Source: an uncultured bacterium (GTDB lineage: Bacteria > Oederibacteriota > Oederibacteriia > Oederibacteriales > Oederibacteriaceae). From it: a DNA stretch of 64,000 nt. The notes beneath the pieces were generated by a model. The model was not told where the DNA came from. It was given only the letters and a program-made list of their open reading frames with translations, and made no database searches. The stretch covers positions 1,088,001 through 1,152,000 of the forward strand of contig OZ218778.1 of NCBI GenBank assembly GCA_965112635.1, written 5' to 3'. The first letter of the stretch is position 1. Each line of letters opens with the position of its first letter. The position numbers were made by a program, and so were the translations under genes. Below, one piece after another: positions 3,931 through 62,613 of this stretch.

Positions 3931-6147
3931 ATGGGGAAATTTTGCTGGAAAATCCTTTTGGGGCTATGGCTGGCGGTCCTGTCCGGTAATGCTTTTGGGG
4001 GCAGCACCGGTATCACTGAATTTGTAGACCTGGGCCCTGTTTACAACTGCAGTGTTTTCGCCGACCCGCAGGCCTATCGCCAGGCCACAGGCGACGGCCT
4101 GGTCATGGGGTCCCTGGGGAACATCTATTTTCCCGACAACGGTTTCAACAACCAGGGCTGCTTCATCCCCCTGACCCTCACGGCCATCACCATACCGCTC
4201 ACTTTTTACGCGACCAGCCAGGAAATCAATTCCAAGGTTTCCAGCAACCCGCCGGCTTTGTTCCGGGACAGCCAGGGTTATCCCAACGTGGTCATGGTCC
4301 ATTTCCCAGCCCTTTATATGACACAGATGGTCGCGGTCCAGACCCCCACTCCCGTGCCCATGCCGACCCCGCCGCCGACCAGGACGCCCGTGGGAAATAT
4401 ACGCCTGCCCGGTTATTTGATGGAGTCAGATGAGACGCCTCCCAGTCCCGGCAACCTGACCCTTACGGCTCTCCAACCCAATATCTTACCCAACGCAGCC
4501 GGATTGACCCTGACCGCAGGAGGGCTCACTTTGACCGCCTCCACCCTAGCCGGGGGAGTTACGATAACCGCCGTTTCCACCGGGTCCAAATACAACGCGG
4601 TCAGGCTGACGGACAAGGATTTTAAGCTCAATTTTGAAACACCCGTGGATACCATCATCCTGTTGCTGGCCGCGGAGGGCCAACCCGGCCAGAAGCAGGG
4701 GACCAACCTCCCTCTCAAGATCACCTGTATCTATGACGACGATATAGACCAGACCGGGATCGGCCAGGTGCCTCTGGCCCTGGGGCCCGCGGCCGCCACC
4801 AGCCTCACCCTCACTTCTTCCATTTTCAGCGAAGGGCACGAATGCCTGGCGAGCTTCCCGGTCGTCCGGGACAGCGGGGATATTGTCCCAAGCACCATAT
4901 CCTGGTACGCCTATGCCATCCATCCGGACCGGCTTAAAAACCTTAAGCAATTGGTGCTCAACTGTCCGGGATCGGGAGGGACCGCGGGAAGCGTGCTATT
5001 GGGGGCTGTTTCCTATAAAAGGACGCCCAATCCGGAGCTGGTGCTCAATGCGCCGGCCTCGATCGAGTCGTATACCCCGTTTTTAGTGACGGTCACGGCC
5101 ATGGACGGCTATGGATTCGTGGACACCGGTTACCGGGGGATCGTGCATTTTGCGACCACGGACCCCTTCTTTATCACGGTGACCGCGGACACGGCCACAC
5201 CCATGCCCACCCCCTCCGAGGAGTTCATGGCGGCCGGGGTCACGCCAGCGGCCCTGCCGGCTGACTATACTTTCAAGCCGGAACAAAAAGGGCAGGCCGT
5301 CATACCGGTAAGCCTGGCCAGCACGGGTTCCTTCACCCTTTCCGCCCAGGACACCAAGAACGCCAAGCAGACGGCTACCGTCCCGGTCGCAACCGCCAAA
5401 AACAAACTGCTGGCGATTCTCGCGGACCGGAGGCTCTCCAGCATCAACCTGTGCCTTTTGCCCACGGCCTATCTGGGCCAGTACAAACATGATTCAGGGT
5501 GGGGGTTCACCAATTCTTACGCCTTTTCCTGGTATATCGGGAATATTTATTACGTGGAGGGCGGACAGACCAATTACACCCAGCCGCTGGGCACCTATCT
5601 TCTGACCGGGGACCTCAAAGCCGGAATGCTAGGGGAAACAGACTGGTCTCCGGCCCTGGCCGGCGGCGTCAGCGGAGGTTTCCTGTTCGTCTCGGGATCC
5701 AATCCAGGCCAGGCCCAATCCCTGAGCCAGTTCAGCACAAATAGTCTCCTCAACTTTTTTACCGTGGGGAGCAAAAAAGTCTGGAACGGGGCCGTTCACG
5801 CCGGGTTTGTCTGGGGCAATTTCCCTGGCTTCATGGCCACCCTGAGCCCCTATGTCCTGTCCACCCCGGACCAGCTGACCGCAGACACCCAGACCGGGCT
5901 CACCGGGAGCGCCAACCTGGACCAGGCGCCCAAACACGCGGTCTACGTGGGATTCAACTATCCCCTGTTCGGGGAACTGAGCTTGAAAACCGAGGTTGTG
6001 TATCCCTACGAGCTGGGGAACGTTTACCTCATCAACACGCAGATCTCCCATTTCACCAGTTTTGACCTGTCCTATTTGAGGCACAAGAACGGCTTTCAGC
6101 TGATGGGCTACGTGAACATCAGGGTACAGTTCTATCCCTCAGATTGA
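3931..6147 (+). CDS. Secreted/surface protein: signal peptide, Pro/Thr-rich linkers, Ig-like module, C-terminal YjbH-like beta-rich domain
   Basis: Signal-peptide-like N-terminus ending in AFG. TPTPVPMPTPPPTRTP and TATPMPTPS linkers. Ig-like segment TVTAMDGYG...GYRGIVHF...LPADYTF. DLKAGMLGETDWSPALAGG resembles YjbH barrels (by eye). Confidence 0.55.
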   Translation: MGKFCWKILLGLWLAVLSGNAFGGSTGITEFVDLGPVYNCSVFADPQAYRQATGDGLVMGSLGNIYFPDNGFNNQGCFIPLTLTAITIPLTFYATSQEINSKVSSNPPALFRDSQGYPNVVMVHFPALYMTQMVAVQTPTPVPMPTPPPTRTPVGNIRLPGYLMESDETPPSPGNLTLTALQPNILPNAAGLTLTAGGLTLTASTLAGGVTITAVSTGSKYNAVRLTDKDFKLNFETPVDTIILLLAAEGQPGQKQGTNLPLKITCIYDDDIDQTGIGQVPLALGPAAATSLTLTSSIFSEGHECLASFPVVRDSGDIVPSTISWYAYAIHPDRLKNLKQLVLNCPGSGGTAGSVLLGAVSYKRTPNPELVLNAPASIESYTPFLVTVTAMDGYGFVDTGYRGIVHFATTDPFFITVTADTATPMPTPSEEFMAAGVTPAALPADYTFKPEQKGQAVIPVSLASTGSFTLSAQDTKNAKQTATVPVATAKNKLLAILADRRLSSINLCLLPTAYLGQYKHDSGWGFTNSYAFSWYIGNIYYVEGGQTNYTQPLGTYLLTGDLKAGMLGETDWSPALAGGVSGGFLFVSGSNPGQAQSLSQFSTNSLLNFFTVGSKKVWNGAVHAGFVWGNFPGFMATLSPYVLSTPDQLTADTQTGLTGSANLDQAPKHAVYVGFNYPLFGELSLKTEVVYPYELGNVYLINTQISHFTSFDLSYLRHKNGFQLMGYVNIRVQFYPSD

Positions 6148-6777
6148 TCGTTTTCCCTTGTTGACCTGCCTTAGTTTCCGGGCGGGATTGCCGACCATGA
6201 CGCTGTGGGGAGGCACATCTTTGGTGACCACGCATCCCATGCCCAGAACGCTGTGCCGGCCGATGGTCAGTTTTTCCCTGCAGGAACAAGCCTGTCCCAG
6301 ATAGCATTCAGATTCCACCTTGGTGTAACCAGCCAGGGACACCCGGCTGGCCAGCATCACCCCGTCTTTGATGACGACATCGTGATTGATGACGGTGTGG
6401 CTGAGACAGAAAACGAAATTCCCCAGTTGGGCCCTGTCGCCGATGAAACAATGAGGATAGATGACGCAACCGAGGCCTATCTTGGCCGAGGGAAAGACAC
6501 AGGATGAAGGGTCTACCAGGGAAACAAGACGGTCCGAAGGCAAAGCGTAACGGTCAGGCCATTTTTGGTCCGGGACAATATACGCCTTGGGGAACTTGGC
6601 CAGCCTGTCCACGGTACCAAGGACTGGGTATCCCCCCCTGTCCTGGCCAATGAACCGCTTTTCCGTGGTCAGAAAACCCAGAAGGTTCCACGTTTTTTTG
6701 CTTTTGTTGACCCGCTCCGTGATATAGGCCAATTCTTCGCCGTGGCGTCCCCCGCTTAAAATGATAAGGTCCTTCAT
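6139..6777 (-). CDS. NeuD/PglD-like hexapeptide sugar N/O-acetyltransferase
   Basis: N-terminal Rossmann-like GGRHG, left-handed beta-helix repeats, INHD, and VMVGNPARK C-terminus. Confidence 0.85.
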   Translation of the reverse strand: MKDLIILSGGRHGEELAYITERVNKSKKTWNLLGFLTTEKRFIGQDRGGYPVLGTVDRLAKFPKAYIVPDQKWPDRYALPSDRLVSLVDPSSCVFPSAKIGLGCVIYPHCFIGDRAQLGNFVFCLSHTVINHDVVIKDGVMLASRVSLAGYTKVESECYLGQACSCREKLTIGRHSVLGMGCVVTKDVPPHSVMVGNPARKLRQVNKGKRSI

Positions 6778-7892
6778 ACAGTTCTTTTTAGGGTTTTGAC
6801 CACCGCGGCCGCTACTTCCCTGACCTGAGCCTCGGTCAATTCGGCGAACATGGGCAGGGAGAGGACCTGCCGGCTGTATTTTTCGGCGACCGGGAAAGAA
6901 CCGGCCTTGTAGTTGAGGTCCTGATAGGCCTTTTGCAAGTGGACCGGGATGGGGTAGTGGATGCCGGTCTGGATGCCCGCCGCTTTAAGTTCCTCGGCCA
7001 ACTGGTCCCTTTTTTCCACGAGGAGGGAGAACTGGTGGTAGACATGGCGGTATTCCTGGGGTTCGCGGGGCAGGGTCAACGAGGCGCCCTTTAAAAGTTC
7101 GCGGTAGAGTTTGGCATGGGCGCGCCGGGTCTGGGTCCAGGATTCCAGGTGCTTGAGCTTGACCTTGAGCACGGCGCCCTGAAAGCCTTCCATCCGGTAG
7201 TTGAAGGCTTTGAAGTCGTGGTGGTACTTGACCTCCGTGCCCCAGTCGCGCAGCAGTTTGACTTTGCGGGCGTAGTCGGGGTTGCTCGTCGTGACAGCCC
7301 CACCTTCGCCGTAGGCGCCCAGGTTTTTCCCGGGGTAGAAACTGAAACAGCCTAGTGCACCCAGGCTGCCCGCCCGGCGGCCTTTGTATTCCGCGCCGTG
7401 AGCCTGGGCCGCATCCTCGATCACGAGAAGACCGTGCTCCTTGGCCAAAGCCAAAAGGGGATCCATGTCAGCGCAGAGCCCGTAGAGATGCACCGGCATG
7501 ATGACTTTGGTCCTGGGGGTGATGGCGGCCTTGACCTTGCGCACATCCATGTTGAAGGTCTCGGGGTCGATATCGACCAGGACGGGTTTGGCGCCTGTAT
7601 AAACAATGGCCGCCACGGTGGCGATAAAGGTGAACGGCACGGTGATCACTTCGTCGCCCGGGCCCACCCCGGCGGCCAAGAGGGCCAGATGCAGGGCGCT
7701 GGTCCCGGAATTGACGCCCACCGCGAAAGAGGTCTGGCAGTAGGAGGCAAAGTCCTTCTCAAAATCGGCTACTTCCTTGCCCAGAATGAACTGGCTTGTT
7801 TCCAGGACGTTCTGCAACGCGGCGTCTATCTCCGGTTTGATGCTGTGGTACTGAGCTTTTAGATCACCTAAAGGGACCATTTTTTCTCCCAT
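6774..7892 (-). CDS. DegT/DnrJ/EryC1/StrS family PLP sugar aminotransferase
   Basis: NSGTSALH, PVHLYG, EDAAQAHG, SFYPGKNLGAYGEGG (PLP Lys). Confidence 0.93.
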   Translation of the reverse strand: MGEKMVPLGDLKAQYHSIKPEIDAALQNVLETSQFILGKEVADFEKDFASYCQTSFAVGVNSGTSALHLALLAAGVGPGDEVITVPFTFIATVAAIVYTGAKPVLVDIDPETFNMDVRKVKAAITPRTKVIMPVHLYGLCADMDPLLALAKEHGLLVIEDAAQAHGAEYKGRRAGSLGALGCFSFYPGKNLGAYGEGGAVTTSNPDYARKVKLLRDWGTEVKYHHDFKAFNYRMEGFQGAVLKVKLKHLESWTQTRRAHAKLYRELLKGASLTLPREPQEYRHVYHQFSLLVEKRDQLAEELKAAGIQTGIHYPIPVHLQKAYQDLNYKAGSFPVAEKYSRQVLSLPMFAELTEAQVREVAAAVVKTLKRTV

Positions 7893-8015: not shown

Positions 8016-8753
8016 TCATTTTTTAACTGCCACGCCGATCAAAGAGATCCCAAAAGGCAGGTCGAATCTCTTTAAAAAAGGAAGTTCCCAAAGCATGACC
8101 TTGTAAAACAGCCGATTGAGGATTGGGGGGATGGGTTTGAGGATATCAGAGACGGGCGGCTTGCCGAAGTTCAGGTAGTTGTCTTTCAGGCGGACTGCCA
8201 CGATGGGAAAAAACAGAAAAAAGTTATAGAAAGAAAGTTTTTTTATGACGAAGCCGTTCTTCAAGAGCTTGCTCAGCAGGTCTTTTTTGGTGTAGCGGCG
8301 GTAGTGGCGGCCCAGCTCGTCAAAGTCCGACCAAAGGGAAGGGAAGGCAGGGACCGTTAGGAACAAAAGGCCGTCCTTTTTTAGGACACGGTGAAATTCC
8401 CGGAGCCCTTTATCTTCCGCGGGCAGGTGTTCCAGGAGGTCCAGTGCCACGACGACGTCGAAACTCTCCTTTTTGAAAGGGAGTTTTTCAGCCGCTCCCT
8501 TCACGACCGGGCGCAACCCCCTTTTACGGCAAAAGTTGAGGGCATCCTCTGAGCTATCCACGCCTGTCACGGGGCCCAACGACCGCAACAGTTCCAGGTT
8601 GGCCCCTGTGCCGCAACCCACATCCAGGATCTTCGGCGCGTGCCGGCCAGACAACCATTGGCCCATTAGGCCGAGAAGGATAGCTCGCCTGGCCAGGAAC
8701 CAGAAATGAACCTTGTCGAATTCGTAATTTTGTCTATAGGCGTCCTTTTCCAA
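8016..8753 (-). CDS. Class I SAM-dependent methyltransferase
   Basis: LDVGCGTG, LDLLEHL, TVPA...HYRRY. Confidence 0.88.
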   Translation of the reverse strand: MEKDAYRQNYEFDKVHFWFLARRAILLGLMGQWLSGRHAPKILDVGCGTGANLELLRSLGPVTGVDSSEDALNFCRKRGLRPVVKGAAEKLPFKKESFDVVVALDLLEHLPAEDKGLREFHRVLKKDGLLFLTVPAFPSLWSDFDELGRHYRRYTKKDLLSKLLKNGFVIKKLSFYNFFLFFPIVAVRLKDNYLNFGKPPVSDILKPIPPILNRLFYKVMLWELPFLKRFDLPFGISLIGVAVKK

Positions 8754-8756: not shown

Positions 8757-9893
8757 TTATCCTCTAAAACTAAAAATGGCCGCTACTACCCGCTGCAGAT
8801 CTTCCTCGGCGATATTGTTATAAAAAGGAAGGCGGAGCAAACAATCGCTTATCCTCTCAGCGACAGGGCAGTCTCCCTGTTTGCCTCCGAATTTTCTGCC
8901 CATTTCGGAAAGGTGGAGCGGCTGATAGTGGAAAACTGCGAGAACGCCTTGGCTTTTTAAATGCGAGAGCAAAGCCTGCCGTTGTTCTAGGTTGGGAAGG
9001 ACGAGATAGAACATGTGGTAGGATTGCTCGCAGTGAGGAGGGACCCGGGGGAGTTGGACCCCATGGCTTGAGGCCCAATCTTTGAGGTTCTCGAAATAAA
9101 ACCCCCATATTCTTTTGCGCTTGGCCAGGATCTTTTCTTTTTCTTCAAACTGGGCGAATAAAAAGGCCGCCAAAATGTCAGAGGGCAAATAGCTGGAACC
9201 GACATCCACCCAGGTATACTTGTCCACCTGACCCCTGAAAAACCGGCTCCGGTCAGTGCCTTTTTCGCGGATGATCTCGGCTCTGGCGAGGAACTTCGCA
9301 TCGTTGATCAGGAGAGCTCCGCCCTCTCCGCAGGTGAAATTTTTGGTTTCGTGGAAACTTTGAGTGGCCAGGGAACCAAAAGTGCCCAAAAACCTGTTTT
9401 TGTACTTGCCGAACAAACCATGGGCGTTATCTTCAATGACCGTAACCCCTTTTTTCCCCGCCAGGGAGAGGATCGGGTCCATTTCGCAGCCCACGCCGGC
9501 ATAATGGACCACCACTACCGCCTTAGTCCTGGGAGTGAGGAGATCGGCTAGCTTGTTCTCGTCCAGGTTCATGGTTTTGGGGGATATGTCGATAAAAATA
9601 GGCTGGGCCCCATGAAGCACGAAAGCGTTGACCGTTGAAACAAAGGTGAAAGAAGGGATGATGACCTCCTCCCCTGGTTTAAAGTCCAGCAATAAAGCGG
9701 CCATTTCCAGGGCATGGGTGCAGGAAGTCGTTAACAAGGCGTGTTGGGTGCCCAGGTTTTTTTCGAGGAATTGCTGGCATTTTCTTGTGAATGGGCCGTC
9801 TCCAGATATGTGCCCGTCCTGGATAGATTGTTGGAGATAACGGATCTCGTTACCCTGCAGGTCAGCGCGGTTGAATGGTATTAAATAGTTCAC
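8757..9893 (-). CDS. rffA: dTDP-4-amino-4,6-dideoxygalactose transaminase (WecE/RffA-like)
   Basis: TTSCTHALE, VHYAGVGCEMD, SFHETKN, EKGTDRSRFFRGQVDKYTWVDVGSSYLPS are characteristic of WecE. Confidence 0.9.
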   Translation of the reverse strand: MNYLIPFNRADLQGNEIRYLQQSIQDGHISGDGPFTRKCQQFLEKNLGTQHALLTTSCTHALEMAALLLDFKPGEEVIIPSFTFVSTVNAFVLHGAQPIFIDISPKTMNLDENKLADLLTPRTKAVVVVHYAGVGCEMDPILSLAGKKGVTVIEDNAHGLFGKYKNRFLGTFGSLATQSFHETKNFTCGEGGALLINDAKFLARAEIIREKGTDRSRFFRGQVDKYTWVDVGSSYLPSDILAAFLFAQFEEKEKILAKRKRIWGFYFENLKDWASSHGVQLPRVPPHCEQSYHMFYLVLPNLEQRQALLSHLKSQGVLAVFHYQPLHLSEMGRKFGGKQGDCPVAERISDCLLRLPFYNNIAEEDLQRVVAAIFSFRG

Positions 9894-9914: not shown

Positions 9915-10850
9915 TCATATTTTTTCGCGGATCGTATAAGGGGGCCGGTCCATGGAGCGGAAGTGGATGCGGGCGAGATACTCGCCGATAATGCCGAGGG
10001 CGAACAATTGGACCCCCGAAAAAAGAGCTATGGAAGAAGCCAGAAAGGAGAACCCTGAAACAGGGCTGCCTTGGATGAGGTATCTCCCGACCACATAAAG
10101 AAGGAGAACGATGCCAAATAGAGTAAAAATAAAACCCATCATGCTGGCGATTTGCAGGGGGATGATGGTGAATCCCGTTACCATATTCAGGGAATGGACC
10201 ACCAGCTTTTTGAAGGTATAGTTGGTGGTCCCTCTTAGTCTTTTGTGATGGGCGACCGGAACTGCCGCGAAACGGGTCGTTCCCCAGGTCAAAAGAACAT
10301 CTATGGATACTAGGGGGCTCTGGTAATTGGCGAAAGCGTCCCTGATGGCCGTGCGGAAGGCCCTGAACGCGGACACCTGGCGGGCCACTTTCACACCCAT
10401 GGTGGTTTTTAAGGCCAGCTTGGTCACTTGAGAAGCCAAGTCACGCCATAAGCCGTGCTGCTCTTTCTCTGGGGTGCCATAGACAACATCATAACCTTCA
10501 TTGAGCTTTTGCAACAGGGTGGGGATTTCCTGAGGGGGATTCTGCAGGTCGTCATCCATCGTCACGATAATGTCATAACGGGCTGCCCTTATGCCACATA
10601 GAAGCGCATTATGCTGGCCGTAGTTCCGCATGAGACAACTGCCTCGGACGCCAGGGTATTGATCAGCCAGACTTTGGATAACTTTCCAGCTTTCATCGTG
10701 ACTGGCATCATTAACGAAGATCAGTTCGTACTTGCTTGATATTTTCGGCAGGATCTTAACAAGTTCAGCCGTCAGTTCAGCCAGGTTCAATGCAGCATTG
10801 TAAACGGGAATGACGACAGAAAGCGAGTTTTTGGTTTTAACTTTTCCCAT
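9915..10850 (-). CDS. GT2 polyprenyl-phosphate glycosyltransferase (ArnC/GtrB-like)
   Basis: SVVIPVYN, VNDAS, RNYGQHNA, MDDDLQNPP, two C-terminal TM helices with GIIGEYLARI. ATG 10850 has a GGGGAG RBS. Confidence 0.9.
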   Translation of the reverse strand: MGKVKTKNSLSVVIPVYNAALNLAELTAELVKILPKISSKYELIFVNDASHDESWKVIQSLADQYPGVRGSCLMRNYGQHNALLCGIRAARYDIIVTMDDDLQNPPQEIPTLLQKLNEGYDVVYGTPEKEQHGLWRDLASQVTKLALKTTMGVKVARQVSAFRAFRTAIRDAFANYQSPLVSIDVLLTWGTTRFAAVPVAHHKRLRGTTNYTFKKLVVHSLNMVTGFTIIPLQIASMMGFIFTLFGIVLLLYVVGRYLIQGSPVSGFSFLASSIALFSGVQLFALGIIGEYLARIHFRSMDRPPYTIREKI

Positions 10851-10987
10851 CTTCTCCCCTTTTTCTCCCAAAACATTCTTATAATGATATAACTGTCCGT
10901 TGAATGCAAGCCATATAGTGTTATTGCTCTAGATTCTTGCATTTTTGACGGGTGGCATGAGAAGGTTCAAGTCGGCATTTCGTTTCC

Positions 10988-11016: not shown

Positions 11017-11058
11017 CTAGGTTAATTGCCAATATTTAAAGACATCAGGAGGGTCACG

Positions 11059-21703: not shown

Positions 21704-21705
21704 GC

Positions 21706-40740: not shown

Positions 40741-40750
40741 AGGAAGGCCT

Positions 40751-42929: not shown

Positions 42930-42937
42930 GCGATGAA

Positions 42938-49372: not shown

Positions 49373-49413
49373 TAATTTTTCCTTTCTTAAACAAAGCTCA
49401 GAAAGCATGATGC

Positions 49414-49575: not shown

Positions 49576-49707
49576 TATACCATATTCCTACCTGTGCCTT
49601 GTGCGCCAGAAATCGTTTTGTTAAACTCCATGATGTCAACATCCACGGTTTAACTCATTTTAGCCCTCGTATGAGGACAGCCGTGGTTCTTGAGCGGAGG
49701 AGCAGCG

Positions 49708-56100: not shown

Positions 56101-56224
56101 CCAGTATCCGTTCTTGTTGAGGTATCAACAGCTGGATACCGATGCGAATAAAGGTCTGGAGTTGTCCTGGGAAACCCCGGAGGGGATACGGGATTATATT
56201 CCCGTTGACCAGATCACGCATTGA
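53105..56224 (+). CDS. GT-C glycosyltransferase with two PA14 domains
   Basis: RAYRLCTVPAAFYYNND loop, LHLSRI. Two PA14-like units (GLTASYF...VRWSG...GAHHLEV; GATGFYY...PFSVAWKG...LSWETP). Confidence 0.78.
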   Translation: MTALQVWIAAIILLVLNGFLLFSGYIVGLAGILIAVGMVGWFYILRFSQQQMKAAAKQAGAREPRLRPSPTGKKGGVKDLKPGLRQAGKTEAKLSGVKDKRPPINLLSVYLNLLPIAFLKKTYPFLLLAGLGILFAGQLWIHSGFFVLGIIGYIFAFIIIGLSALSLVESPWERETAGSERALKTAPSKDHQTDSMFYLGIFLSYYFVTLLILIKQPDNFLGLLFSLLSVFFFASWIYFSQPFTGSWGSKKSSARKKLLGHEGIAFLAIMVFAFLLRAYRLCTVPAAFYYNNDIPSLNIAANIMAQIQSPFGLVLGTINTCFYTLLLPLSKIFVADPLVVTRFAMLVCGMGSILALYLLVRELFDAKTAFWGSFLISISLLHLHLSRIWQPLMPAMFFSLVTLYFFYRTYRATGILPVILGGLALGFLVLSFPPAATCLVLAVLMMLYVYFFDPFSFRDKVNRMALLCMLGVVMATPVLAYMLNHWVEFSGAFKQSTIVGLPFKEWVPAYFRNIGFYVSIFTFKALAPAVNFYLPNPGAPLLDTLSFGFCLLGLFYGLFRIYQMRYIVLLGGGFVTFLTLCLLNNSDPSYGILLVPMFCALGGVGVSKIEECLARFFPQGKKAVFALLVLCLILAAGFNAKKYFVDYGKTSFNQFNTWPDVVAARQIERSLDLKERVISDWVGSPIVNSALYPRTMEAFQPSLHLPIQTPVLSNVSFYFRPPTAMVFSSENFLPFLRYFYPGGKEEKFAEKGVALYSSYKVPKDQVMAIQGLTASYFKKGDEKPYWVKKEMGVSLTNTASLIQGSIGLVRWSGSFFSQQGGTYLFSLVMKGQGRVLVDGQKVAGGSNSAVKSLDGKIDITTGAHHLEVVYAPVAGGEVSVYWTEPGGGKALIPGERLCTMAAPPFGATGFYYPNTDFRGSPAFEKADLMLTTPWAGILPFKKPFSVAWKGLLQIKQAGNYKFYLKSVHPASLTINNIKIITKTSKGPGEAAAAVALKNGQYPFLLRYQQLDTDANKGLELSWETPEGIRDYIPVDQITH

Positions 56225-56374
56225 GTTAGCAGACTGTTAAGCTGGGCTTGCCGCCTTTAAGCGGCCAACCCTGAACTTTAAGGCCCGGAGTTTTTACCCG
56301 GCCAATCATTATTAGGCGCTGTGCTTTTACGGGCAGGCAGCCCATGGCGACAGGATCGCCTGAGAGGAGACAAC

Positions 56375-59254
56375 TTGGCAAAAGAACATAAATCAACCAT
56401 CCCTACAGGGCTGCCGCAAAACCAGCCCGCGGAAAAGATAGTGGTGCCGGGCATCCTCAGCAAAAATCTAAATTTGAATTTTTATCTTTTTATAGGGATG
56501 CTTGTCTTGGCCCTCATTGGACAGGTTTTCTTTTTATTCAGGAAGATAAACACCGCCTTATTTTTTTACGAGATCAGCATCATCCTGGTTTTTGTTCAAA
56601 GCTATCTCCAGAGCAAACTTCGCCCCGAAGGTGTTTATTCGGTGATCCCGGCCCCTGGTCCAACCACCCGCCTATCGGGTTCTTTCCGCTGGAGCCTGCT
56701 TCTTGCCGTTATTTTGAGTTTAAATTCGCTGACTTATTTTTCAAAATCTTTTGATAAGGCCGGCTTCGTTATGTATCTCTGCAGTATTTTATTGTGCGCC
56801 GGCACGATTTTTTGGGCGGATAGGAAGAGTGGCCCTCAACCGGAAAGCCATCCGATTTTCTGGAAAAGTCCCTATGTCTGGCTGTTATTGCTCATCTGTC
56901 TAATGGGCTGGGTCATGCGGGGATGCAATTTGAACAATATCCCGGTGGGGGGATATGAAGACGAACTGGTCTGGGTCTGGCAGGGACTGGAAGTGTTTCT
57001 CGGGCATGTGGCCACTCCTTTTAATCTAGAAGGAGCCGGTGTTTCCAGCCTGATGGTGCATTTTTTTATGGCTCTGTTCCTCAAAGTTTTCCCCTCCGCG
57101 GACAATCTGATCGCCTGCAAAATGGTATCTGTATTTTTTGGGACCCTGGCGGTGCTGGCCATTTATTTTATGCTCGCAAATTTATTCAGCCGAAGAGTAG
57201 GGTTAATCGGTTCGTTCTTGCTGGCCTTTTCTTACTGGCATGCGTGCGCCAGCCGGCTTGTTTATGACCATATAGAATCCCCGTTCTTTGGGATCATTGC
57301 AGTTTATTTCCTTTTTAAAGCTTTCAAAACCGGGAGGTTAATCCACTTCTTTCTTGGCGGAGCGGCGCTGGGGTTTGGGATGTACTTTTATGTGACCGGC
57401 AGAATCCTGCCGTTCGTGTTTGTCCTTTTTCTTATTTACCTCTTCATTTTTCAAAGGGGAATGCTCCGGGCGCATGGGAAAGGTCTTCTGGTCTTTTTTA
57501 TCGCCGTTTTTTTAATTGTTTCTCCGTTCCTCAAAAGCATCAATCCCTGGGGCCCAAGCTATAGTAGCCGTATCAGCCAAACCTCTCTCTATAATGAGAT
57601 CGGGGGCAAGCATTATGCGGCAGCTTTGGCCAAAAATTTTGTCAACTACCTTTTGATGTGCAATGGGATAGGGAACCATAAGGTGCGCTATATACCTGAA
57701 GCTTTCTGGCCCCAGTTAGATTTCTTTTCGTCCATCTTTTTTGCTTTGGGGCTCATGTTTGCCTTATTTCGCTTTAGAGACCCCCGTTATTTGTTCCTGC
57801 TGATCTGGTATTTTTTAATGATCGTCCCAGGAGTTGTTTCTATTGCCGGGGACGCTCCCGCTTCCTGGCGTGTATCGGGCAGCATCCCGCCCATTATTGC
57901 TTTTGCCGCCATCTTTTTTGACCGTGTCGTTGGTTTTGTGGAGGAGCAAAAACTGAAGATAAGGAAAATCGGAAGGGTGGTCCTGGGGGTTGTCCTGCTT
58001 TATATTGCCGTCTTTGGGCTGTGGGCTATTTTCAAGGTCTATGCAACCTCCAAAGCAAATTTTTATGAGGCTCTTCCCATTGAAACGATTATGAGCAGGG
58101 CCATCATCAGCAAGATGCCCCAGTATGATGTCTATGCGACGACAGGCGGAGGACTGGTCCAGATGGCTTTTAATATTCTTACGACCCGGCACGGAGAATT
58201 TAAAAGCTTTGACCCTTACAGAGATATACCGGCCAGCCTGTGCCCGAATAAAAAGGGAGCTTATTATTTTGTAGGCGGCCCCCAGACGTCTTTGGCCGAA
58301 CCACTTTTAAGAGTTTATTACCCTCATGCCAAGTGGACCAATTGTAAAGATGTGAATAAAATTTATGACGGGGAGTACCTTTATAGAAGCGTGGAGATCA
58401 GTTCCCAAGAAGTATCTTCTTATTACGGGGTTGATGCCGCTTATTATAAAGGTGGAGACATTTCAGGGAAGCCAACCCTGCAGCAGGTAGAGCCTCAGAT
58501 CCGTTTTGCCTGGCCGGGCATCAAGCCACCGCTTCCTTTTCCATTCTCGGCAGTATGGCAGGGTGAACTGAACATCCCCGAATTCGGGAAATACAAACTT
58601 GGAATTAAAGCAAAAGGCAAAATGAATATGTTCCTTGATGAAAAACCGATTCTGTCGCATTTACCCAGTAAGGTGCCGGGAGGCAAATGGACCGATGTTG
58701 AACTTATTAAAGGCAGGCACGCGTTTAAAATCGTATATACCTCGCCGAGTTCGGGAGGAGATGTTGTCGAATTATTTTACGGGCAGTATAAAAGCACGGG
58801 TGTCACTGTTCAGGTCGTTCCGGCCTCCAGTATCATCCGTCCGTCTTCATTCAGGATCCATAACGGTTTGATAACAAATTATTACAAAACTTTGGACTGG
58901 AAGGGAGCACCGGTGGCCACACAGCTGGTGCCTGTTTTAATTTCAAGCTGGGGTGACAGTGATCCCTTCCCAGGACCTTTCAGCGTCGAGTTCAATGGGA
59001 AGATCAGAATTGACCAGGAAGGTTTTTATATGTTCCACTTGGGAAGTTATGGGGATGCCTATTTGTATATTGATGGCAAAATCGTTGATGTCAACAGAAG
59101 CAGTTTTACCGATTGCAAGGTATATTTAACTAAAAAGGACCATGCTCTCCGCATGCGGTATACCTTTCGGGGCGGGGCAAAATCAATCCAGTTATGGTGG
59201 ACGCCTCCTAGCGGAGTCCGGGAATTGGTGCCGTTTGAAGTATTGACCCCTTAA
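56375..59254 (+). CDS. GT-C glycosyltransferase with two PA14 domains
   Basis: IPVGGYEDE, WHACASR, GMYFYVTGR. Two PA14-like units (PFSAVWQG; NGLITNYY...PFSVEFNG...LWWTPP). TTG 56375 follows a GAGGAG RBS. Confidence 0.8.
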   Translation: MAKEHKSTIPTGLPQNQPAEKIVVPGILSKNLNLNFYLFIGMLVLALIGQVFFLFRKINTALFFYEISIILVFVQSYLQSKLRPEGVYSVIPAPGPTTRLSGSFRWSLLLAVILSLNSLTYFSKSFDKAGFVMYLCSILLCAGTIFWADRKSGPQPESHPIFWKSPYVWLLLLICLMGWVMRGCNLNNIPVGGYEDELVWVWQGLEVFLGHVATPFNLEGAGVSSLMVHFFMALFLKVFPSADNLIACKMVSVFFGTLAVLAIYFMLANLFSRRVGLIGSFLLAFSYWHACASRLVYDHIESPFFGIIAVYFLFKAFKTGRLIHFFLGGAALGFGMYFYVTGRILPFVFVLFLIYLFIFQRGMLRAHGKGLLVFFIAVFLIVSPFLKSINPWGPSYSSRISQTSLYNEIGGKHYAAALAKNFVNYLLMCNGIGNHKVRYIPEAFWPQLDFFSSIFFALGLMFALFRFRDPRYLFLLIWYFLMIVPGVVSIAGDAPASWRVSGSIPPIIAFAAIFFDRVVGFVEEQKLKIRKIGRVVLGVVLLYIAVFGLWAIFKVYATSKANFYEALPIETIMSRAIISKMPQYDVYATTGGGLVQMAFNILTTRHGEFKSFDPYRDIPASLCPNKKGAYYFVGGPQTSLAEPLLRVYYPHAKWTNCKDVNKIYDGEYLYRSVEISSQEVSSYYGVDAAYYKGGDISGKPTLQQVEPQIRFAWPGIKPPLPFPFSAVWQGELNIPEFGKYKLGIKAKGKMNMFLDEKPILSHLPSKVPGGKWTDVELIKGRHAFKIVYTSPSSGGDVVELFYGQYKSTGVTVQVVPASSIIRPSSFRIHNGLITNYYKTLDWKGAPVATQLVPVLISSWGDSDPFPGPFSVEFNGKIRIDQEGFYMFHLGSYGDAYLYIDGKIVDVNRSSFTDCKVYLTKKDHALRMRYTFRGGAKSIQLWWTPPSGVRELVPFEVLTP

Positions 59255-59271: not shown

Positions 59272-60195
59272 ATGTGCCCAGGGCAGTGCAAAATGGAATT
59301 TATTCCCTGTAATCTTTGCGGGGCCGATGATTATAAAGTTGTTTATGAGGCCAGTCCTGGGGAGCCGCCGTGCCCGGAATCGCAATACTGCTGCACCAGC
59401 CCAGGCCTAGCCTTTCACGACCGCATTGTCCGTTGCAAGCAATGTGGCTTGATGTATTCCAACCCCCGGGTTCTCTCCCAAGAGATCGAAAAAAATTACA
59501 GGCTTATCCAGGACGATACCTATCTCCAAGAAAAAGAAGGGCGCGTTTTGACCTTTATCAGGAGCCTTGAGGAGTTGGAGAAGGTTAAAAAAGGAGGGAA
59601 ACTCCTTGAAATAGGCTGCTACACGGGTTTTTTTTTGGATCTTGCCAGGCAAAGGGGATGGGATACGCAGGGAGTGGAGTTGTCTGCATGGGCTGCGCGG
59701 CACGCAACGGATACTTTAAAATTAAAGGTCTTCCAAGGCACATTAAGTGAGGCTCGGATGCCTGGAGAACAATTCGATGTTGTGGTTTTATGGGACGTCA
59801 TTGAGCATATGACCGACCCTCTCCATGAGCTTAGGGAGATAAATCGAGTTTTAAAAAAGGACGGCGTGGTTGTACTGACAACGATTTTTATGGATACTTT
59901 GCCCGCTTTGCTGACAAGAGAGAAATATCCATTTTTGATGACAATGCATCTCTATTATTTTACGCGAAAAACAATGGGCAAAATGATGGAAAAAGCAGGG
60001 TTGCAAATTTTTAAAATTGGGAAACATGTGAGGGTTTTGAGGTTAGTTTATTTTTTAAGATATATTAAATTGTTCAGTGTATTATTATATGAACTGTCCA
60101 CTTGGGTCGTAAAAAAGTTAAAATGGGAAGCCAAGCCGGTGTCTGTCAGCTTTTCCGGATTAAAGACAATTTATTGCAGAAAGATAAATTCCTGA
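59272..60195 (+). CDS. Class I SAM methyltransferase with N-terminal Zn-ribbon
   Basis: CNLC...CKQCGL, LEIGCYTG, WDVIEH, HLYYF. The start may be ATG 59293. Confidence 0.87.
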   Translation: MCPGQCKMEFIPCNLCGADDYKVVYEASPGEPPCPESQYCCTSPGLAFHDRIVRCKQCGLMYSNPRVLSQEIEKNYRLIQDDTYLQEKEGRVLTFIRSLEELEKVKKGGKLLEIGCYTGFFLDLARQRGWDTQGVELSAWAARHATDTLKLKVFQGTLSEARMPGEQFDVVVLWDVIEHMTDPLHELREINRVLKKDGVVVLTTIFMDTLPALLTREKYPFLMTMHLYYFTRKTMGKMMEKAGLQIFKIGKHVRVLRLVYFLRYIKLFSVLLYELSTWVVKKLKWEAKPVSVSFSGLKTIYCRKINS

Positions 60196-60213: not shown

Positions 60214-61089
60214 TTGCTGGAACGAGTGCGCGCCTGTTTTCTTTGCGGTTCCCAGGATTACTGGCCGCTTTTTACGGTCAAAAAGACCGTTTCTGTGGTC
60301 AAATGCCCTGGTTGCGGCCTCCTTTATGTGAATCCCCGGCCCACGGACGAAGAATTCCGCAACATTTACCAGAACGAATCCTATTTTAAAAATAAGAATG
60401 TTTTACTTTATGGGTATGACGATTACATGAAAGAGGAACCATTATATCGAGACCTGTTTAAAAGGTGCCTTGAAGACCTAGAACAATATAAGCCAAAAGG
60501 GACCATGCTGGACGTGGGGTGCGCCACCGGTTTTTTCTTAGACGTAGCCCAGTCCCGGGGTTGGGAAACCTATGGAGTGGAAATTTCAAAGTTTGCTTCC
60601 GGTTATGCCAGAGAACATTTCAAACTGAACATTTTTACCGGCACCCTTGCCGAAGCGAAATTACAGAGCGGAATGTTCGATGCGGTCGTGATGTACGATC
60701 AGATCGAGCATGTCCGGGAACCCCTGGAGCAACTCCAGGAAGCTTATCGGCTCCTCAAACCAGGAGGCATCTTGACCATCAATACCCCCAACGCAGGAGG
60801 ACTTTTGAGCAAGATCATGCGCCGCCGCTGGTTCCATTTCAAAGAAGATCACCTGTTTTTCTTTTCCAATACCACGATCAGCAAGGCTCTTGCCGCCGCA
60901 GGTTTTCAGGTCCTTAAGGTCAAGCCCAGCGGCAAAGTCGTCACTTTACGGTACCTCATTGGCAGGTTGAACCATTACAGCAGATTTTTAGCCAGGTTTT
61001 TGGACTATCTTTTAGGCGAATTCAGGTTCGTCAATAAGGCTTTCTATCTATATATCGGGGAGATGGTCGTTTATGCCAAAAAACCCTGA
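60214..61089 (+). CDS. Class I SAM methyltransferase with N-terminal Zn-ribbon
   Basis: CFLC...CPGCGL, LDVGCATG, DQIEH, TPN, DHLFFF. Confidence 0.87.
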   Translation: MLERVRACFLCGSQDYWPLFTVKKTVSVVKCPGCGLLYVNPRPTDEEFRNIYQNESYFKNKNVLLYGYDDYMKEEPLYRDLFKRCLEDLEQYKPKGTMLDVGCATGFFLDVAQSRGWETYGVEISKFASGYAREHFKLNIFTGTLAEAKLQSGMFDAVVMYDQIEHVREPLEQLQEAYRLLKPGGILTINTPNAGGLLSKIMRRRWFHFKEDHLFFFSNTTISKALAAAGFQVLKVKPSGKVVTLRYLIGRLNHYSRFLARFLDYLLGEFRFVNKAFYLYIGEMVVYAKKP

Positions 61090-61870
61090 AATGACCAGCA
61101 GGGAATTTCTCCATGGATATTTGCGAATAAGACCCGTATCCACCGCTTTATGGAGGACTGCGGAATTCATCGAGTTCAAGCGGCTTAAGATCAAGCCCCC
61201 TCTGCTGGATCTAGGCTGTGGAGACGGATTGTTTGCCATGCAACTATTTGGCAAGGGGATAGAAGCAGGAATTGACCTGAACCGCGAAGAGGTCGGCCTC
61301 GCCGTCAAGAAGGGAGTCTACAAGCGGGTCTATGTCCAGAACGCCAGGCGGCTTCCTTTCCCTACCAATCATTTCAATACGGTGTTCAGCAACTGCGTCA
61401 TGGAGCACGTGGGTCCCTTGGATGAAGTCCTCAGGGAGATCCGCCGTGTTTTGAAGCGGGGCGGGAAATTCGTCTTCACAGTGCCTGGAGATCACTTTAA
61501 CCGTTTACTTTTTTACCCCAGGATCTTCCGCGCTGGTGGACTCAAAGCCATGGGTGACTGGTATACAAGATCTCTCAATAAAAGCTTGGCGCATGTTCAG
61601 GTGGAGGGGCCTGTTTTCTGGGAGAAAAGATTAGAAAAAGCAGGTTTGAAATTAGTTTATTCCAATTATTTTATGCCGCATGGCGCCATGGCGTTCTTTG
61701 ATATTACTATTCTCTGGGGGGCCCCCTCCAAACTATGGCGTCGCTATTTTAACCGCTGGACGATCTTTCCCCGTTTCTGGTGGGTTTGGCTGTGGGAAGG
61801 CTTTTTTTACCGTCTTTTAATGAAAAAAGAAAAAGTCGGGGGCGGATTGATTTTGGTCGCACAAAAATAG
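61073..61870 (+). CDS. Class I SAM-dependent methyltransferase
   Basis: LDLGCGDG, SNCVMEH, FTVP. Confidence 0.85.
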   Translation: MPKNPEMTSREFLHGYLRIRPVSTALWRTAEFIEFKRLKIKPPLLDLGCGDGLFAMQLFGKGIEAGIDLNREEVGLAVKKGVYKRVYVQNARRLPFPTNHFNTVFSNCVMEHVGPLDEVLREIRRVLKRGGKFVFTVPGDHFNRLLFYPRIFRAGGLKAMGDWYTRSLNKSLAHVQVEGPVFWEKRLEKAGLKLVYSNYFMPHGAMAFFDITILWGAPSKLWRRYFNRWTIFPRFWWVWLWEGFFYRLLMKKEKVGGGLILVAQK

Positions 61871-61899
61871 TTTCTAGCATTAAGCCACAGGAGTTTCTT

Positions 61900-62613
61900 T
61901 TGAAACCAGTAGTGATGATTCCAACTTATAATGAAAAAGACAATATACTCCTGTTGATCGGCGCGTTATTGTCGCTGCCCGTTAAGCTGGATATCCTTGT
62001 GGTGGACGATAATTCCCCGGATGGAACGTGGAAACTTGTTGAAAAGCTTTCCAAAAAAAACAAGCATGTCCATCTGCTGAGAAGGTTGAACAAGCGGGGA
62101 CGAGGGCCAGCCGGTGTCGACGGGTTCCTCCAGGCGTTGAAAATGGGTGCAGACGTCATCGTTGAAATGGACGCGGATTTTTCCCATGACCCGAAATATA
62201 TTCCCCAGATGCTGAAAGAAATAAAGCATTGGGATGTCGTGATCGGGTCCAGGGCCGTGCCAGGCGGCAGGGATAACCGCAGGGGTTTCCTGAGGTCCTT
62301 GATCACCTGGTTGGCCAGACGATTCATACAATTTCATCTTAATCTTCCCATTCAGGACGTTTCCGGAGGGTATCGTTGTTTCAGAGGCAAGGTGCTCAAA
62401 GCTATCGATCTGGAAAATGTGGTTTCTCGCGGTCCTTCTATTCTGCAGGAAATATCCTATAAGGCTTTTTTAAAAGGGTTTAGGTTCAAGGAGATCCCTA
62501 TTATTTTTACTGACCGTGCCCGAGGGGCTACCAAGCTGAACTTAAAAACCCTTTTAGAATCCTTGATGATGGTATTAGTGATCAAAAAGCGTTATTCTAT
62601 GAAGAACATTTAA
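61900..62613 (+). CDS. Polyprenol-monophosphomannose synthase-like GT2 (Dpm1/Ppm1 family)
   Basis: IPTYNEKDN, VVDDNSPDGT, MDADFSHDP, GSR, D.SGGYRC, PIIFTDR. TTG 61900 follows AGGAG. Confidence 0.9.
   Translation: MKPVVMIPTYNEKDNILLLIGALLSLPVKLDILVVDDNSPDGTWKLVEKLSKKNKHVHLLRRLNKRGRGPAGVDGFLQALKMGADVIVEMDADFSHDPKYIPQMLKEIKHWDVVIGSRAVPGGRDNRRGFLRSLITWLARRFIQFHLNLPIQDVSGGYRCFRGKVLKAIDLENVVSRGPSILQEISYKAFLKGFRFKEIPIIFTDRARGATKLNLKTLLESLMMVLVIKKRYSMKNI

Follow-up and report, generated by a model that had tools for sequence, protein, structure and literature searches.

The window analysed here is a 64,000-nucleotide stretch (positions 1,088,001-1,152,000) of the single-contig, 2,876,006-bp genome of an uncultured bacterium of the phylum Oederibacteriota, and most of it (6139-62613, approx. 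56 kb) is taken up by a block of 42 genes that appears to serve extracytoplasmic glycosylation. Pfam and NCBIfam scans assign to this locus seven large PMT_2-type GT-C glycosyltransferases (GT-Cs; 928-1039 amino acids, aa), two small polytopic proteins (571 and 492 aa), five family 2 glycosyltransferases (GT2s), nine class-I S-adenosylmethionine (SAM) methyltransferases, one B12-binding radical-SAM enzyme, one NHL propeller, and 17 sugar-pathway enzymes (Table 1). The last group comprises two DegT proteins, one NeuD/PglB/VioB acetyltransferase, two epimerase/dehydratases, one nucleotide-sugar dehydrogenase, two short-chain dehydrogenases, two GFO/MocA oxidoreductases, an aldo-keto reductase, an HMGL-like enzyme, and HddA-, nucleotidyltransferase-, GmhA-, GmhB-, and transaldolase-like proteins. 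This agrees with an earlier note on the same DNA, which had listed GT-Cs, GT2s, rare-sugar genes, and "about ten" methylating enzymes between these borders. All five GT2s match PF00535 at the places it named, and the starts of several open reading frames (ORFs) are shifted by 18-120 bases (45653, 49690, 56321, 42920, and 61780 instead of 45695, 49708, 56375, 42938, and 61900).

The window contains 56 ORFs of at least 150 aa, 47 of which were scanned against Pfam; of the nine others, one is 112-1524 in its 5'-open form and eight are shadow ORFs within longer genes, i.e., 5629-6084(-), 7398-7862(+), 12463-13194(-), 13439-13999(-), 21334-21792(-), 22468-23016(-), 37362-38084(-), and 47903-48415(-). 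The genes of interest are strongly clustered: seven of the 26 PMT_2 matches in the genome lie within 35 kb (approx. 0.3 expected), and five of the 12 genomic ORFs related to the GT2s of the window lie within 56 kb (approx. 0.24 expected). None of the 47 scanned ORFs matches Glycos_transf_1 (GT4), Bac_transf, Glycos_transf_4, Polysacc_synt (Wzx), Wzy_C, ABC2_membrane, or GtrA, which upholds the reported absence of GT4 enzymes, initiating transferases, Wzx/Wzy, ABC exporters, and GtrA from the window, and the intergenic gaps of the locus (at most 384 bp) contain no small hydrophobic ORFs.

Table 1. Genes of the locus at 6139-62613, in window coordinates (TM, transmembrane helices; E values and bit scores are from Pfam or NCBIfam unless stated otherwise, and cut-offs are those of the respective model).
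Gene	Coordinates	Strand	Assignment and features
NAT	6139..6777	-	Sugar N-acetyltransferase (hexapeptide; NeuD/PglB/VioB); Hexapep; TIGR03570 E 5e-40, below cut-off
DegT	6774..7892	-	DegT aminotransferase, PseC-like; PF01041 E 8e-130; PseC best, 290 bits, below cut-off
MT1	8016..8753	-	SAM methyltransferase; Methyltransf_11 E 6e-24
WecE-like	8757..9893	-	dTDP-4-amino-4,6-dideoxyhexose transaminase; NF008687 555 bits, cut-off 375
GT2a	9915..10871	-	ArnC/GtrB-type polyprenyl-phosphate-sugar synthase; 2 C-terminal TM; full-length ArnC/PgfS matches
AKR	11026..12030	+	Aldo/keto reductase; PF00248 E 5e-72
HMGL-like	12049..13437	+	HMGL-like/isopropylmalate-synthase-like; PF00682; isopropylmalate/homocitrate synthase models, all below cut-off
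GT2b	13463..14455	+	PgfS/ArnC-type synthase; 2 C-terminal TM; PgfS E 8e-80
MT2	14452..15171	+	SAM methyltransferase; Pfam; L042 homologue at phmmer E 8e-79
Epim1	15187..16149	+	Nucleoside diphosphate (NDP)-sugar epimerase/dehydratase; PF01370
NSD	16128..17462	+	Nucleotide-sugar 6-dehydrogenase; TIGR03026 304 bits, cut-off 189.8
SDR1	17467..18336	+	Short-chain dehydrogenase; PF00106
GFO1	18338..19336	+	GFO/IDH/MocA oxidoreductase; Pfam
HddA-like	19444..20427	+	GHMP kinase, HddA-like heptose-7-phosphate kinase; NF049969 E 7e-49, below cut-off
NTP	20424..21128	+	Sugar-1-phosphate nucleotidyltransferase, HddC/MurU-like; Pfam, NCBIfam
GmhA-like	21125..21703	+	SIS-domain isomerase; Pfam, NCBIfam
GmhB-like	21370..22290	+	HAD phosphatase; NF006506 E 4e-35; listed ORF overlaps GmhA
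TAL	22331..23047	+	Transaldolase/fructose-6-phosphate aldolase family; PF00923; would supply sedoheptulose-7-phosphate
NHL	23082..24140	+	NHL-repeat beta-propeller; PF01436 E 2e-45; N-terminal hydrophobic anchor/signal, one TM
GTC1	24191..27043	+	6-TM N-terminal extension, GT-C core ~278-794, PA14 ~799-937; D314-E315 present
GTC2	27152..30064	+	GTC1 paralog, 49% identical; GT-C + PA14; DE pair
GTC3	30167..33031	+	GTC1 paralog, 48% identical; GT-C + PA14; DE pair
MT3	33064..33942	+	SAM methyltransferase; Pfam
GTC4	33939..36725	-	GT-C + divergent PA14-like C-terminus; DD pair; PMT_2 33.7 bits
B12-rSAM	37110..38516	+	B12-binding radical-SAM; PF04055 + PF02310; HpnJ best NCBIfam, below cut-off
Epim2	38540..39520	+	NDP-sugar epimerase/dehydratase; goes with heptose cassette; phmmer E 1e-114 in same-phylum genomes
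GT2c	39517..40740	+	AglJ/DPMS-like synthase; 3-4 C-terminal TM; AglJ E 1e-33
MT4	40697..41887	+	SAM methyltransferase; 396 aa, extra N-terminal part
GFO2	41928..42929	+	GFO/IDH/MocA oxidoreductase; Pfam
GT2d	42920..44161	+	GT2c paralog, 74.6% identical; candidate polyprenyl-phosphate-heptose synthase
TylF	44203..44934	+	TylF-type O-methyltransferase; PF05711 E 1e-24
MT5	44973..45698	+	SAM methyltransferase; Pfam
GTC5	45653..48475	+	GT-C + divergent PA14-like C-terminus; DD pair
SDR2	48536..49408	-	Short-chain dehydrogenase; Pfam
GTCs1	49690..51405	+	Small GT-C; family without Pfam/NCBIfam model; 40% identical to GTCs2
GTCs2	51591..53069	+	Small GT-C; same unnamed family as GTCs1; modelled fold
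GTC6	53105..56224	+	GT-C + two PA14; NN in place of acidic pair, without conserved Arg
GTC7	56321..59254	+	GT-C + two PA14; DE pair
MT6	59272..60195	+	SAM methyltransferase; Pfam
MT7	60214..61089	+	SAM methyltransferase; Pfam
MT8	61073..61870	+	SAM methyltransferase; Pfam
GT2e	61780..62613	+	DPMS-catalytic-domain-like GT2; without C-terminal TM; start probably ~100-135 bases downstream

All seven large proteins match PMT_2 (PF13231), six of them above the gathering score when the ORF proteins are scanned. GTC5 scores 24.0 against a cut-off of 26.1 in that scan and 29.1 bits in a six-frame search of the genome, in which all seven copies exceed the cut-off. GTC2-GTC7 are related to GTC1 by alignment (18-49% identity) and by these PMT_2 matches. 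In an AlphaFold2 model of GTC1 built from a 76-row family alignment (pLDDT 83.8, pTM 0.81), residues 282-794 superpose on ArnT (5f15) with a Z score of 27.7 (rmsd 4.3, 435 residues aligned), yeast STT3, AglB, ALG12, and Pmt4 match at Z 23-27, and structural ranks 1-27 are all GT-C enzymes, so that the GT-C fold proposed in the earlier note is indeed present. The six predicted helices of residues 1-277 have no counterpart among the structural matches listed. Within the family alignment, D314 is conserved in 75, E315 in 72, R404 in 74, and R611 in 75 of the 76 rows, and the acidic pair of the first extracytoplasmic loop is kept in six of the seven window copies. Identification of the large proteins as Wzy/WaaL-like or as transporters was considered and rejected, with no non-GT-C helical entry among the 50 rows listed for GTC1.

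In the C-terminal part, PA14 (PF07691) is found above cut-off in five of the seven large proteins, and the C-termini of GTC4 and GTC5, which have no Pfam match even at E<=10, align with the PA14 parts of the others in a profile comparison (hhalign probability 90.4%, E 1.4e-6, 103 columns). Thus, the description of all seven as GT-C+PA14 proteins holds in full for the GT-C part, in five cases by Pfam for PA14, and in two by profile comparison alone. In the GTC1 model, the PA14 part (799-937) resembles the PA14 domain of RsgI3 (Z 19.1, rmsd 2.1) and the sugar-bound PA14 structures of the Marinomonas adhesin MpIBP (Z 15), which is in line with the premise that PA14 binds carbohydrate; the PA14 domains of the large GT-Cs may do so too. 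Since the GTC1 alignment reaches the periplasmic C-terminal domain of ArnT, the PA14 domain that follows it should be periplasmic.

The two smaller proteins, GTCs1 and GTCs2, match no Pfam or NCBIfam model, and none of the 38 database homologues of GTCs2 has a Pfam domain, bar one with TPR repeats. The GTCs2 model (AlphaFold2, 35-row alignment, pLDDT 92.4) is again of the GT-C type: the top 34 Foldseek rows consist of GT-C enzymes and of PIG-U, a GT-C-like subunit, and VIA-align places Pmt1/2 (Z 21.6), ALG12 (20.9), ArnT (20.2), and AftB (19.2) among the matches, ranks 1-49 (Z 21.6-10.4) being GT-C or PIG-U throughout. The first-loop aspartate D78 hardly varies across the 35 homologues. Judged by this predicted fold, GTCs1 and GTCs2 belong to a GT-C family that has no model, as their earlier description as polytopic and GT-C-like had implied. 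A Wzy, WaaL, or transporter identity of GTCs2 was likewise rejected, the first non-GT-C row being FtsW at Z 5.1. Searches with GTCs2 found this family in none of the 40 same-phylum genomes compared, and its 199 relatives in genome_contigs are closest in Legionella species, Tatlockia, and other gammaproteobacterial metagenome-assembled genomes (MAGs), with more distant ones in Melainabacteria, Opitutaceae, Anaerolineales, and Acidobacteriota.

In sequence, the five GT2s most resemble the class of polyprenyl-phosphate sugar synthases (ArnC/GtrB/DPMS), as previously proposed. The best NCBIfam matches of all five belong to this class (for GT2c and GT2d, AglJ and dolichyl-phosphate-hexose transferase; for GT2e, AglJ, PgfS, ArnC, and PpgS), and so do all PDB matches at E<=1e-5 of the three proteins for which a PDB sequence search was made, each being ArnC, GtrB (sll0501), or P. 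furiosus DPMS (GT2a 7/7, GT2d 2/2, GT2e 7/7; best for GT2a, ArnC at E 2e-46, and for GT2e, P. furiosus DPMS at E 4e-30). By hydropathy, GT2a and GT2b have two C-terminal TM helices, GT2c and GT2d have three or four, and GT2e has none, its sole flagged hydrophobic stretch (residues 56-74) lying within the GT2 domain; enzymes of the PpgS/DPM1 type likewise lack C-terminal TM helices. The C-terminal helices of GT2c and GT2d are not recognisably GtrA-like (no PF04138 match at E<=10). The idea that each GT2 charges a different sugar remains conjecture; GT2c and GT2d are close paralogs.

Heptose is one candidate among the sugars that might be handled in this way. The HddA, HddC, GmhA, and GmhB families are all matched by adjacent genes at 19444-22290, with every NCBIfam score below the equivalog cut-off and with the nucleotidyltransferase scoring higher against MurU than against HddC. 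The GmhB-like domain begins at residue 114 of its ORF, so that the true start is probably near 21700. In two genomes of the same phylum (G011 and G035), homologues of Epim2, HddA, a methyltransferase, GT2d, the nucleotidyltransferase, GmhA, GmhB, and transaldolase form one contiguous operon, and in a third (G018) the order is GT2d, methyltransferase, nucleotidyltransferase, GmhA, GmhB, transaldolase, methyltransferase, and GT-C; the GT2d homologues inside these three operons match at phmmer E 1e-122 to 1e-125. A similar cassette accompanies the small GT-C family elsewhere. Among 80 loci kept of the 199 GTCs2 relatives, a related GT2 lies no more than 8 kb away in 25 (no more than 3 kb in 22), and HddA occurs in 13, Epim2 in 14, GmhA in 12, and transaldolase and nucleotidyltransferase in 11 each. 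In Legionellales (L031-L040: Legionella spp., Tatlockia, and gammaproteobacterial MAG records), the cassette is compact (approx. 8 kb), its typical order being nucleotidyltransferase (-), an FAD amine-oxidase-like gene, GT2 (237 aa), GmhA, transaldolase, HddA, GT-C, and Epim2 (-). The window proteins are 62% (HddA), 61% (Epim2), 55% (transaldolase), 53% (GmhA), and 50% (nucleotidyltransferase) identical to those of a Legionella sp. and 49, 56, 60, 57, and 51% identical, respectively, to those of G011. As to the direction of transfer, these identities are mixed, with HddA nearer to Legionella sp. and transaldolase nearer to G011.

It appears, then, that two unrelated GT-C families in two phyla adjoin the same heptose genes together with a DPMS-class GT2, which argues for heptose being delivered via a polyprenyl-phosphate carrier; this is the strongest single argument available here. 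GT2c and GT2d most likely make polyprenyl-phosphate-heptose. Literature searches found no polyprenyl-phosphate heptose donor for GT-C enzymes.

The genome, which has one 16S rRNA match, contains 26 PMT_2 matches vs. 11 GT4 matches. PA14 yields 18 matches in 13 ORFs, ten of which also match PMT_2, five in the window and five elsewhere. Most of the related GT2 ORFs outside the window also adjoin GT-C genes: two GT2e-related paralogs (at 2172657 and 2176781) directly follow GT-C+PA14 genes, a third (at 2606342) is flanked by a DUF2298 protein and a PMT_2+DUF2298 fusion, and a fourth (at 1927005) by two GT-Cs. The neighbourhood of the third of these (2603815-2612474, L022) contains in a row the DUF2298 protein, the GT2, the 1502-aa PMT_2+DUF2298 fusion, and a UbiA-family prenyltransferase, which is reminiscent of polyprenyl-phosphate-ribose synthases. 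The two other GT-C+PA14 clusters (2169850-2177584 and 2603815-2628329) have a GC content of 37-42% vs. 51.35% for the genome and may thus be acquired islands. For the locus itself, a compositional island was rejected (GC 49.2%, 24th percentile among 56-kb windows).

The 40 comparison genomes are related to the source genome at the phylum level only; thus, the latter seems to be the sole representative of its family among them. GTC1 has matches in 33 of these 41 genomes (source included), the source having 15 and the next highest nine. The earlier note had called for a survey of GT-C+PA14 arrays, and the set of GT2, GT-C, and tailoring genes does recur: among 12 loci from eight same-phylum genomes, picked for GT-C matches there, nine have a related GT2 beside the GT-C genes, and one (L008) has five GT-Cs in 19 kb, the highest number in these loci. 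B12-binding radical-SAM, methyltransferase, NHL, DegT, and heptose genes are recurrent companions, and B12-binding radical-SAM homologues lie inside the GT-C arrays of L008, L013, L016, L017, and L019. In L042, one of the loci with the small GT-C family, homologues of GT-C, MT2, and GT2b (phmmer E 1e-128) are consecutive, MT2 standing between the other two. GtrA is found in five of the 41 genomes, 36 having no match, and in two of them a canonical GtrA gene (G005:C14:19481-19822 and G031:C76:193372-193713) stands 6-8 kb upstream of a GT2b+GT-C array and thereby links it to the classical three-component scheme. Outside the phylum, a profile built from the seven large proteins matches 35,959 cluster representatives at E<=1e-3, of which 2,527 remain at E<=1e-30, and most of the best 150 matches span both the GT-C and PA14 parts. 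The corresponding ESM Atlas clusters are automatically named PA14/PMT_2, the largest having 674 members, most commonly from Chloroflexota. Literature searches found no study of this fused GT-C+PA14 family.

The association with NHL propellers also recurs. In the window, the NHL gene lies directly upstream of GTC1-GTC3; elsewhere in the genome, one NHL gene precedes the GT-C+PA14 gene at 2169850, one follows the 2622190/2625186 pair, and three in tandem adjoin the DUF2298 protein at 2603815. A PMT_2 match is found no more than 6 kb from four of the 12 NHL-like ORFs (random mean 0.95, maximum 6, in 10,000 trials) and no more than 10 kb from seven. In the same-phylum loci L010, L015, and L018, tandem NHL genes adjoin GT-Cs of 1175-1226 aa. 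Among the papers listed in literature searches, none links NHL repeats to GT-Cs. The propellers could be a scaffold, an acceptor, or unrelated to glycosylation.

Taken together, these observations make it reasonable to regard the locus as a scaled-up periplasmic glycosylation system of the three-component type, which uses lipid-linked monosaccharides in a lipopolysaccharide (LPS)-bearing diderm; we give this reading a probability of roughly 0.7. The evidence consists of folds, family resemblances, gene neighbourhoods, and their conservation, from which the identity of the donors, the flipping, the acceptor, and the sequence of additions are inferred. LpxC is present in the genome, so that the organism should be a diderm with lipid A whose GT-Cs face the periplasm. 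Cytoplasmic enzymes would make and tailor nucleotide sugars, the candidates being NDP-heptose (from the kinase, nucleotidyltransferase, isomerase, phosphatase, and transaldolase), an N-acylated 4-amino-4,6-dideoxyhexose, and uronic or keto-sugar derivatives. The nine SAM methyltransferases and the B12-binding radical-SAM enzyme, the latter probably responsible for C-methylation or rearrangement of a sugar, would act on nucleotide- or lipid-bound sugars at the cytoplasmic face. Single sugars would then be loaded on polyprenyl phosphate by the five GT2s and flipped by a protein encoded outside the locus, for which the only two LPG_synthase_TM ("flippase-like") proteins of the genome (2177656-2178657, which follows the GT2 paralog at 2176781, and 1932324-1933301), each adjoining a GT2/GT-C group, are candidates. 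In the periplasm, the nine GT-Cs would transfer these sugars to a glycan-bearing acceptor, which the C-terminal PA14 domains may hold, as the carbohydrate-binding modules of EmbC, AftD, and GT136 do. Because the GT-Cs (nine) outnumber the possible donors (at most five), several sugars would go to several sites on one glycan or a few; the tandem paralogs and the lack of backbone genes nearby argue likewise, and for a primer made elsewhere. Such a primer or backbone would be supplied as in mycobacterial arabinan.

Several observations weigh against this reading. All NCBIfam matches of the GT2s are far below the equivalog cut-offs (e.g., 268 vs. 500 bits for GT2b and PgfS), so that any assignment of donor sugars is a guess, and the window heptose genes (19444-23047) lie 15-20 kb away from GT2c and GT2d. 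The cassette tally covers the closest homologues of GTCs2, and a related GT2 is missing from the 8-kb surroundings of 55 of the 80 loci. Pfam scans of the 47 window ORFs and inspection of the gap ORFs revealed no flippase gene. A flippase search of the whole genome, as suggested earlier, yielded no GtrA match, one weak and distant SMR match (at 912 kb), and, from the MOP family, a MATE pair, one Wzx, and MurJ, the last at 2167 kb and the others at 139 kb and 1300 kb. The pair of LPG_synthase_TM proteins are candidates by virtue of their neighbourhood only. In GTC6, NN replaces the D and E kept in 75 and 72 of 76 rows, and an Arg kept in 75 of 76 is missing. GTC6 may thus be divergent or inactive, perhaps a non-catalytic glycan-binding paralog with two PA14 domains. 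The similar Z scores of STT3 (27.4) and ArnT (27.7) mean that the fold alone does not separate monosaccharide from oligosaccharide donors. Lastly, no acceptor was identified. The extracytoplasmic reading of the earlier note gains from the GT-C folds, the synthase-class GT2s, the PA14 likeness, and the conserved gene set; one assembly line of all nine GT-Cs on one acceptor stays conjectural.

Two alternatives share the chemistry of the periplasmic reading and differ from it only in the acceptor. Each GT-C could be a stand-alone, Gtr-like side-chain transferase acting on an O antigen, capsule, or exopolysaccharide built by a Wzx/Wzy or ABC pathway, in which case the locus would amount to a store of modification modules and not to one pathway. 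Conventional machinery of this kind, which the earlier note had named as a possible consumer of these sugars, is indeed encoded elsewhere in the genome (one Bac_transf, three Glycos_transf_4, one Wzx, seven Wzy_C, and five ABC2_membrane matches, in addition to the 11 GT4 matches), and published three-component systems modify their polymers after polymerisation (PMC11127046). The modules also look separable, since GT2a and the amino-sugar genes form a divergent operon and the cassettes occur singly in other genomes. However, nine GT-Cs, five GT2s, and approx. 27 tailoring genes stand here in one block with no backbone genes within approx. 88 kb on either side, which is the distance of the nearest Bac_transf, Glycos_transf_4, Wzx, Wzy_C, or ABC2_membrane match; three of the GT-Cs are tandem copies (48-49% identical); and a genomic GT-C:GT4 ratio of 26:11 fits GT-Cs that do much of the glycan building. 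We hold independent decoration to be a tentative possibility. Alternatively, the PMT_2 enzymes could act like Pmt, TMTC, or TMEM260 on Ser/Thr of secreted or periplasmic proteins, later GT-Cs extending the glycan, with the adjacent NHL propellers or the Thr/Pro-rich 740-aa protein at 3925-6147 as candidate acceptors. This would agree with the DE pair in the first loop of a PMT_2 family, with the strong structural matches to Pmt4 and Pmt1/2 (Z 22-23), with the NHL genes that adjoin GT-C+PA14 genes in all three clusters of the genome and in L010, L015, and L018, and with the composition of the 740-aa neighbour (10% Thr, PTP-rich linker). It is made unlikely by the absence of Pfam MIR or TPR acceptor-binding domains from the seven large proteins, by PA14 relatives with solved structures that bind carbohydrates, by an NHL linker that is not Ser/Thr-rich, and by a top structural match, ArnT, that glycosylates lipid A.

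A different chemistry would apply if Leloir-type GT2s elongated an undecaprenyl-diphosphate oligosaccharide in the cytoplasm and a GT-C served as oligosaccharyltransferase or ligase. STT3, AglB, and PglB are nearly as close to the GTC1 model as ArnT is (Z 21-27), a profile search gave a weak match to AglB (E 1e-3), and two database homologues of GTC7 carry a precomputed STT3 domain (PF02516) beside PMT_2. Nevertheless, none of the seven large proteins has a Pfam STT3 match, the window lacks an initiating phosphoglycosyltransferase and Wzx, the three GT2s searched have only polyprenyl-monophosphate sugar synthases as PDB relatives, the C-terminal TM hairpins are a hallmark of that class, and nine transferases for a single block would be unparsimonious, all of which renders such block transfer very improbable. 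At the other extreme, a complete, heavily methylated heteroglycan might be built wholly outside the cytoplasm by GT-Cs from at least three to five specially tailored polyprenyl-phosphate-monosaccharides, including lipid-linked heptose, with PA14 reading the chain, NHL propellers as scaffold or acceptor, and the whole serving as the main surface-glycan route of the phylum. This far-reaching version of the periplasmic reading seems doubtful.

In the preferred reading, a lipid-linked monosaccharide system in the periplasm, the chemistry is that of several known systems. The earlier claim that no characterised system with this architecture at this scale is known overlooks mycobacterial arabinan and mannan assembly and GT-Cs with carbohydrate-binding modules (PMC11127046). 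Three-component Gtr systems (GtrA/GtrB/GtrC of Shigella and Salmonella; ORF15/ORF14/ORF12 of Citrobacter youngae, GT136) likewise combine a polyprenyl-phosphate-sugar synthase with an extracytoplasmic GT-C; the GT-C may carry a C-terminal carbohydrate-binding module and auxiliary enzymes diversify the sugar, as they would at the locus (PMC11127046). The locus differs from them in the number of its GT-Cs, synthases, and tailoring genes and in its PA14 module, and it has no flippase gene, no GtrA match in the genome, and no adjacent backbone pathway. Similarity to the ArnB/ArnA/ArnC/ArnT pathway lies in GT2a, which is similar to ArnC over its full length and stands beside DegT aminotransferases and an N-acyltransferase, and in GTC1, whose best match is ArnT. 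However, an ArnA-type formyltransferase/decarboxylase and ArnE/F were not found among the 47 scanned ORFs, the locus aminotransferase passes the 4-amino-4,6-dideoxyhexose model, and the large GT-Cs are approx. 400 residues longer, with the 6-TM extension and PA14. GT2b, in turn, recalls the Pgf system of Streptococcus mutans, PgfS being its best, full-length NCBIfam match, with a score below the equivalog cut-off. Pgf glycosylates adhesins in a monoderm and employs two GT-Cs.

Two further systems employ many GT-Cs. In mycobacteria, EmbA/B/C, AftA-D, MptA-C, and PimE use decaprenyl-phosphate-arabinose and polyprenyl-phosphate-mannose to make arabinan and mannan. As is proposed for the locus, a polymer is assembled extracytoplasmically by many GT-Cs, which outnumber their lipid-linked monosaccharide donors, whereas the mycobacterial genes are dispersed and serve two donors, and the locus would serve at least three to five tailored donors in an LPS-bearing diderm. 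A sequence relationship to Emb/Aft was not detected (no chain at E<=1 in a profile search), and the structural Z scores are just 15-18. Emb and AftD enzymes also carry carbohydrate-binding modules (PMC11127046). The GT-Cs of the eukaryotic endoplasmic reticulum (ER; ALG3/9/12/6/8/10, PMT, TMTC, and TMEM260) similarly make stepwise lumenal additions, from dolichyl-phosphate-mannose and -glucose, and have the core fused to an acceptor-recognition domain (MIR or TPR there, PA14 here); ALG12, ALG9, and Pmt4 are strong structural matches of the locus GT-Cs. The locus differs in its bacterial, periplasmic setting and in its presumed donors, rare methylated sugars.

Thus, the chemistry of the Gtr, Arn, Pgf, and GT136 systems and of mycobacterial arabinan and mannan is already known, as is the combination of a GT-C with a carbohydrate-binding module. 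The novelty lies in the size and compactness of the locus, the abundance of GT-Cs and scarcity of GT4 enzymes in the genome, the absence of a local flippase, the PA14-fused GT-C family, the unmodelled GT-C family, the NHL association, and the predicted polyprenyl-phosphate-heptose donor. The coupling of lipid-linked monosaccharides to GT-Cs is usually viewed as a side branch (Gtr, Arn) or as a mycobacterial speciality; here, nine GT-Cs, five synthases, and approx. 27 tailoring genes are coupled, and related arrays occur across the phylum. As far as literature searches show, the GT-C+PA14 family has been named by automatic pipelines only, and the small GT-C family without a model accompanies the heptose pathway in several phyla. 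A polyprenyl-phosphate-heptose donor, if confirmed, would widen the known donor chemistry of GT-Cs and the toolbox of periplasmic glycoengineering, and the proposed route could explain complex envelopes in lineages with few Leloir transferases. Should the heteroglycan be assembled wholly outside the cytoplasm, it would be a bacterial counterpart to GT-C assembly in the ER lumen and in mycobacteria.

Within the locus, the pair formed by the aldo-keto reductase and the HMGL-like enzyme (11026-13437, +), which heads the GT2b operon, is odd for a sugar pathway. The left border consists of MetRS, a restriction-modification system, an IS110 transposase, TatD, and the 740-aa secreted protein. The restriction-modification genes (L028 8749-13524) encode an Eco57I-type methylase and a ResIII/T5orf172 protein, and the window ORF 112-1524 is the C-terminal portion of an 848-aa ResIII protein. 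The IS110-family transposase gene (1753-2799, -) lies just left of the locus. The 740-aa protein (3925-6147, +), directly left of the locus, has a signal-like N-terminal helix, TLTA motifs that recur, and a PTPVPMPTPPPTRTP linker; neither Pfam nor NCBIfam assigns it to a family, no ESM Atlas match was usable, and it could be a surface protein or an acceptor. At the right border lie a FAD-linked oxidase, an 822-aa protein, and an AcrB/OEP efflux system. The oxidase gene (62644-63999; FAD_binding_4 + FAD-oxidase_C) starts 30 bp past GT2e on the same strand, and the 822-aa protein that follows it (L027 2026-4494) has a weak GH123_N match.

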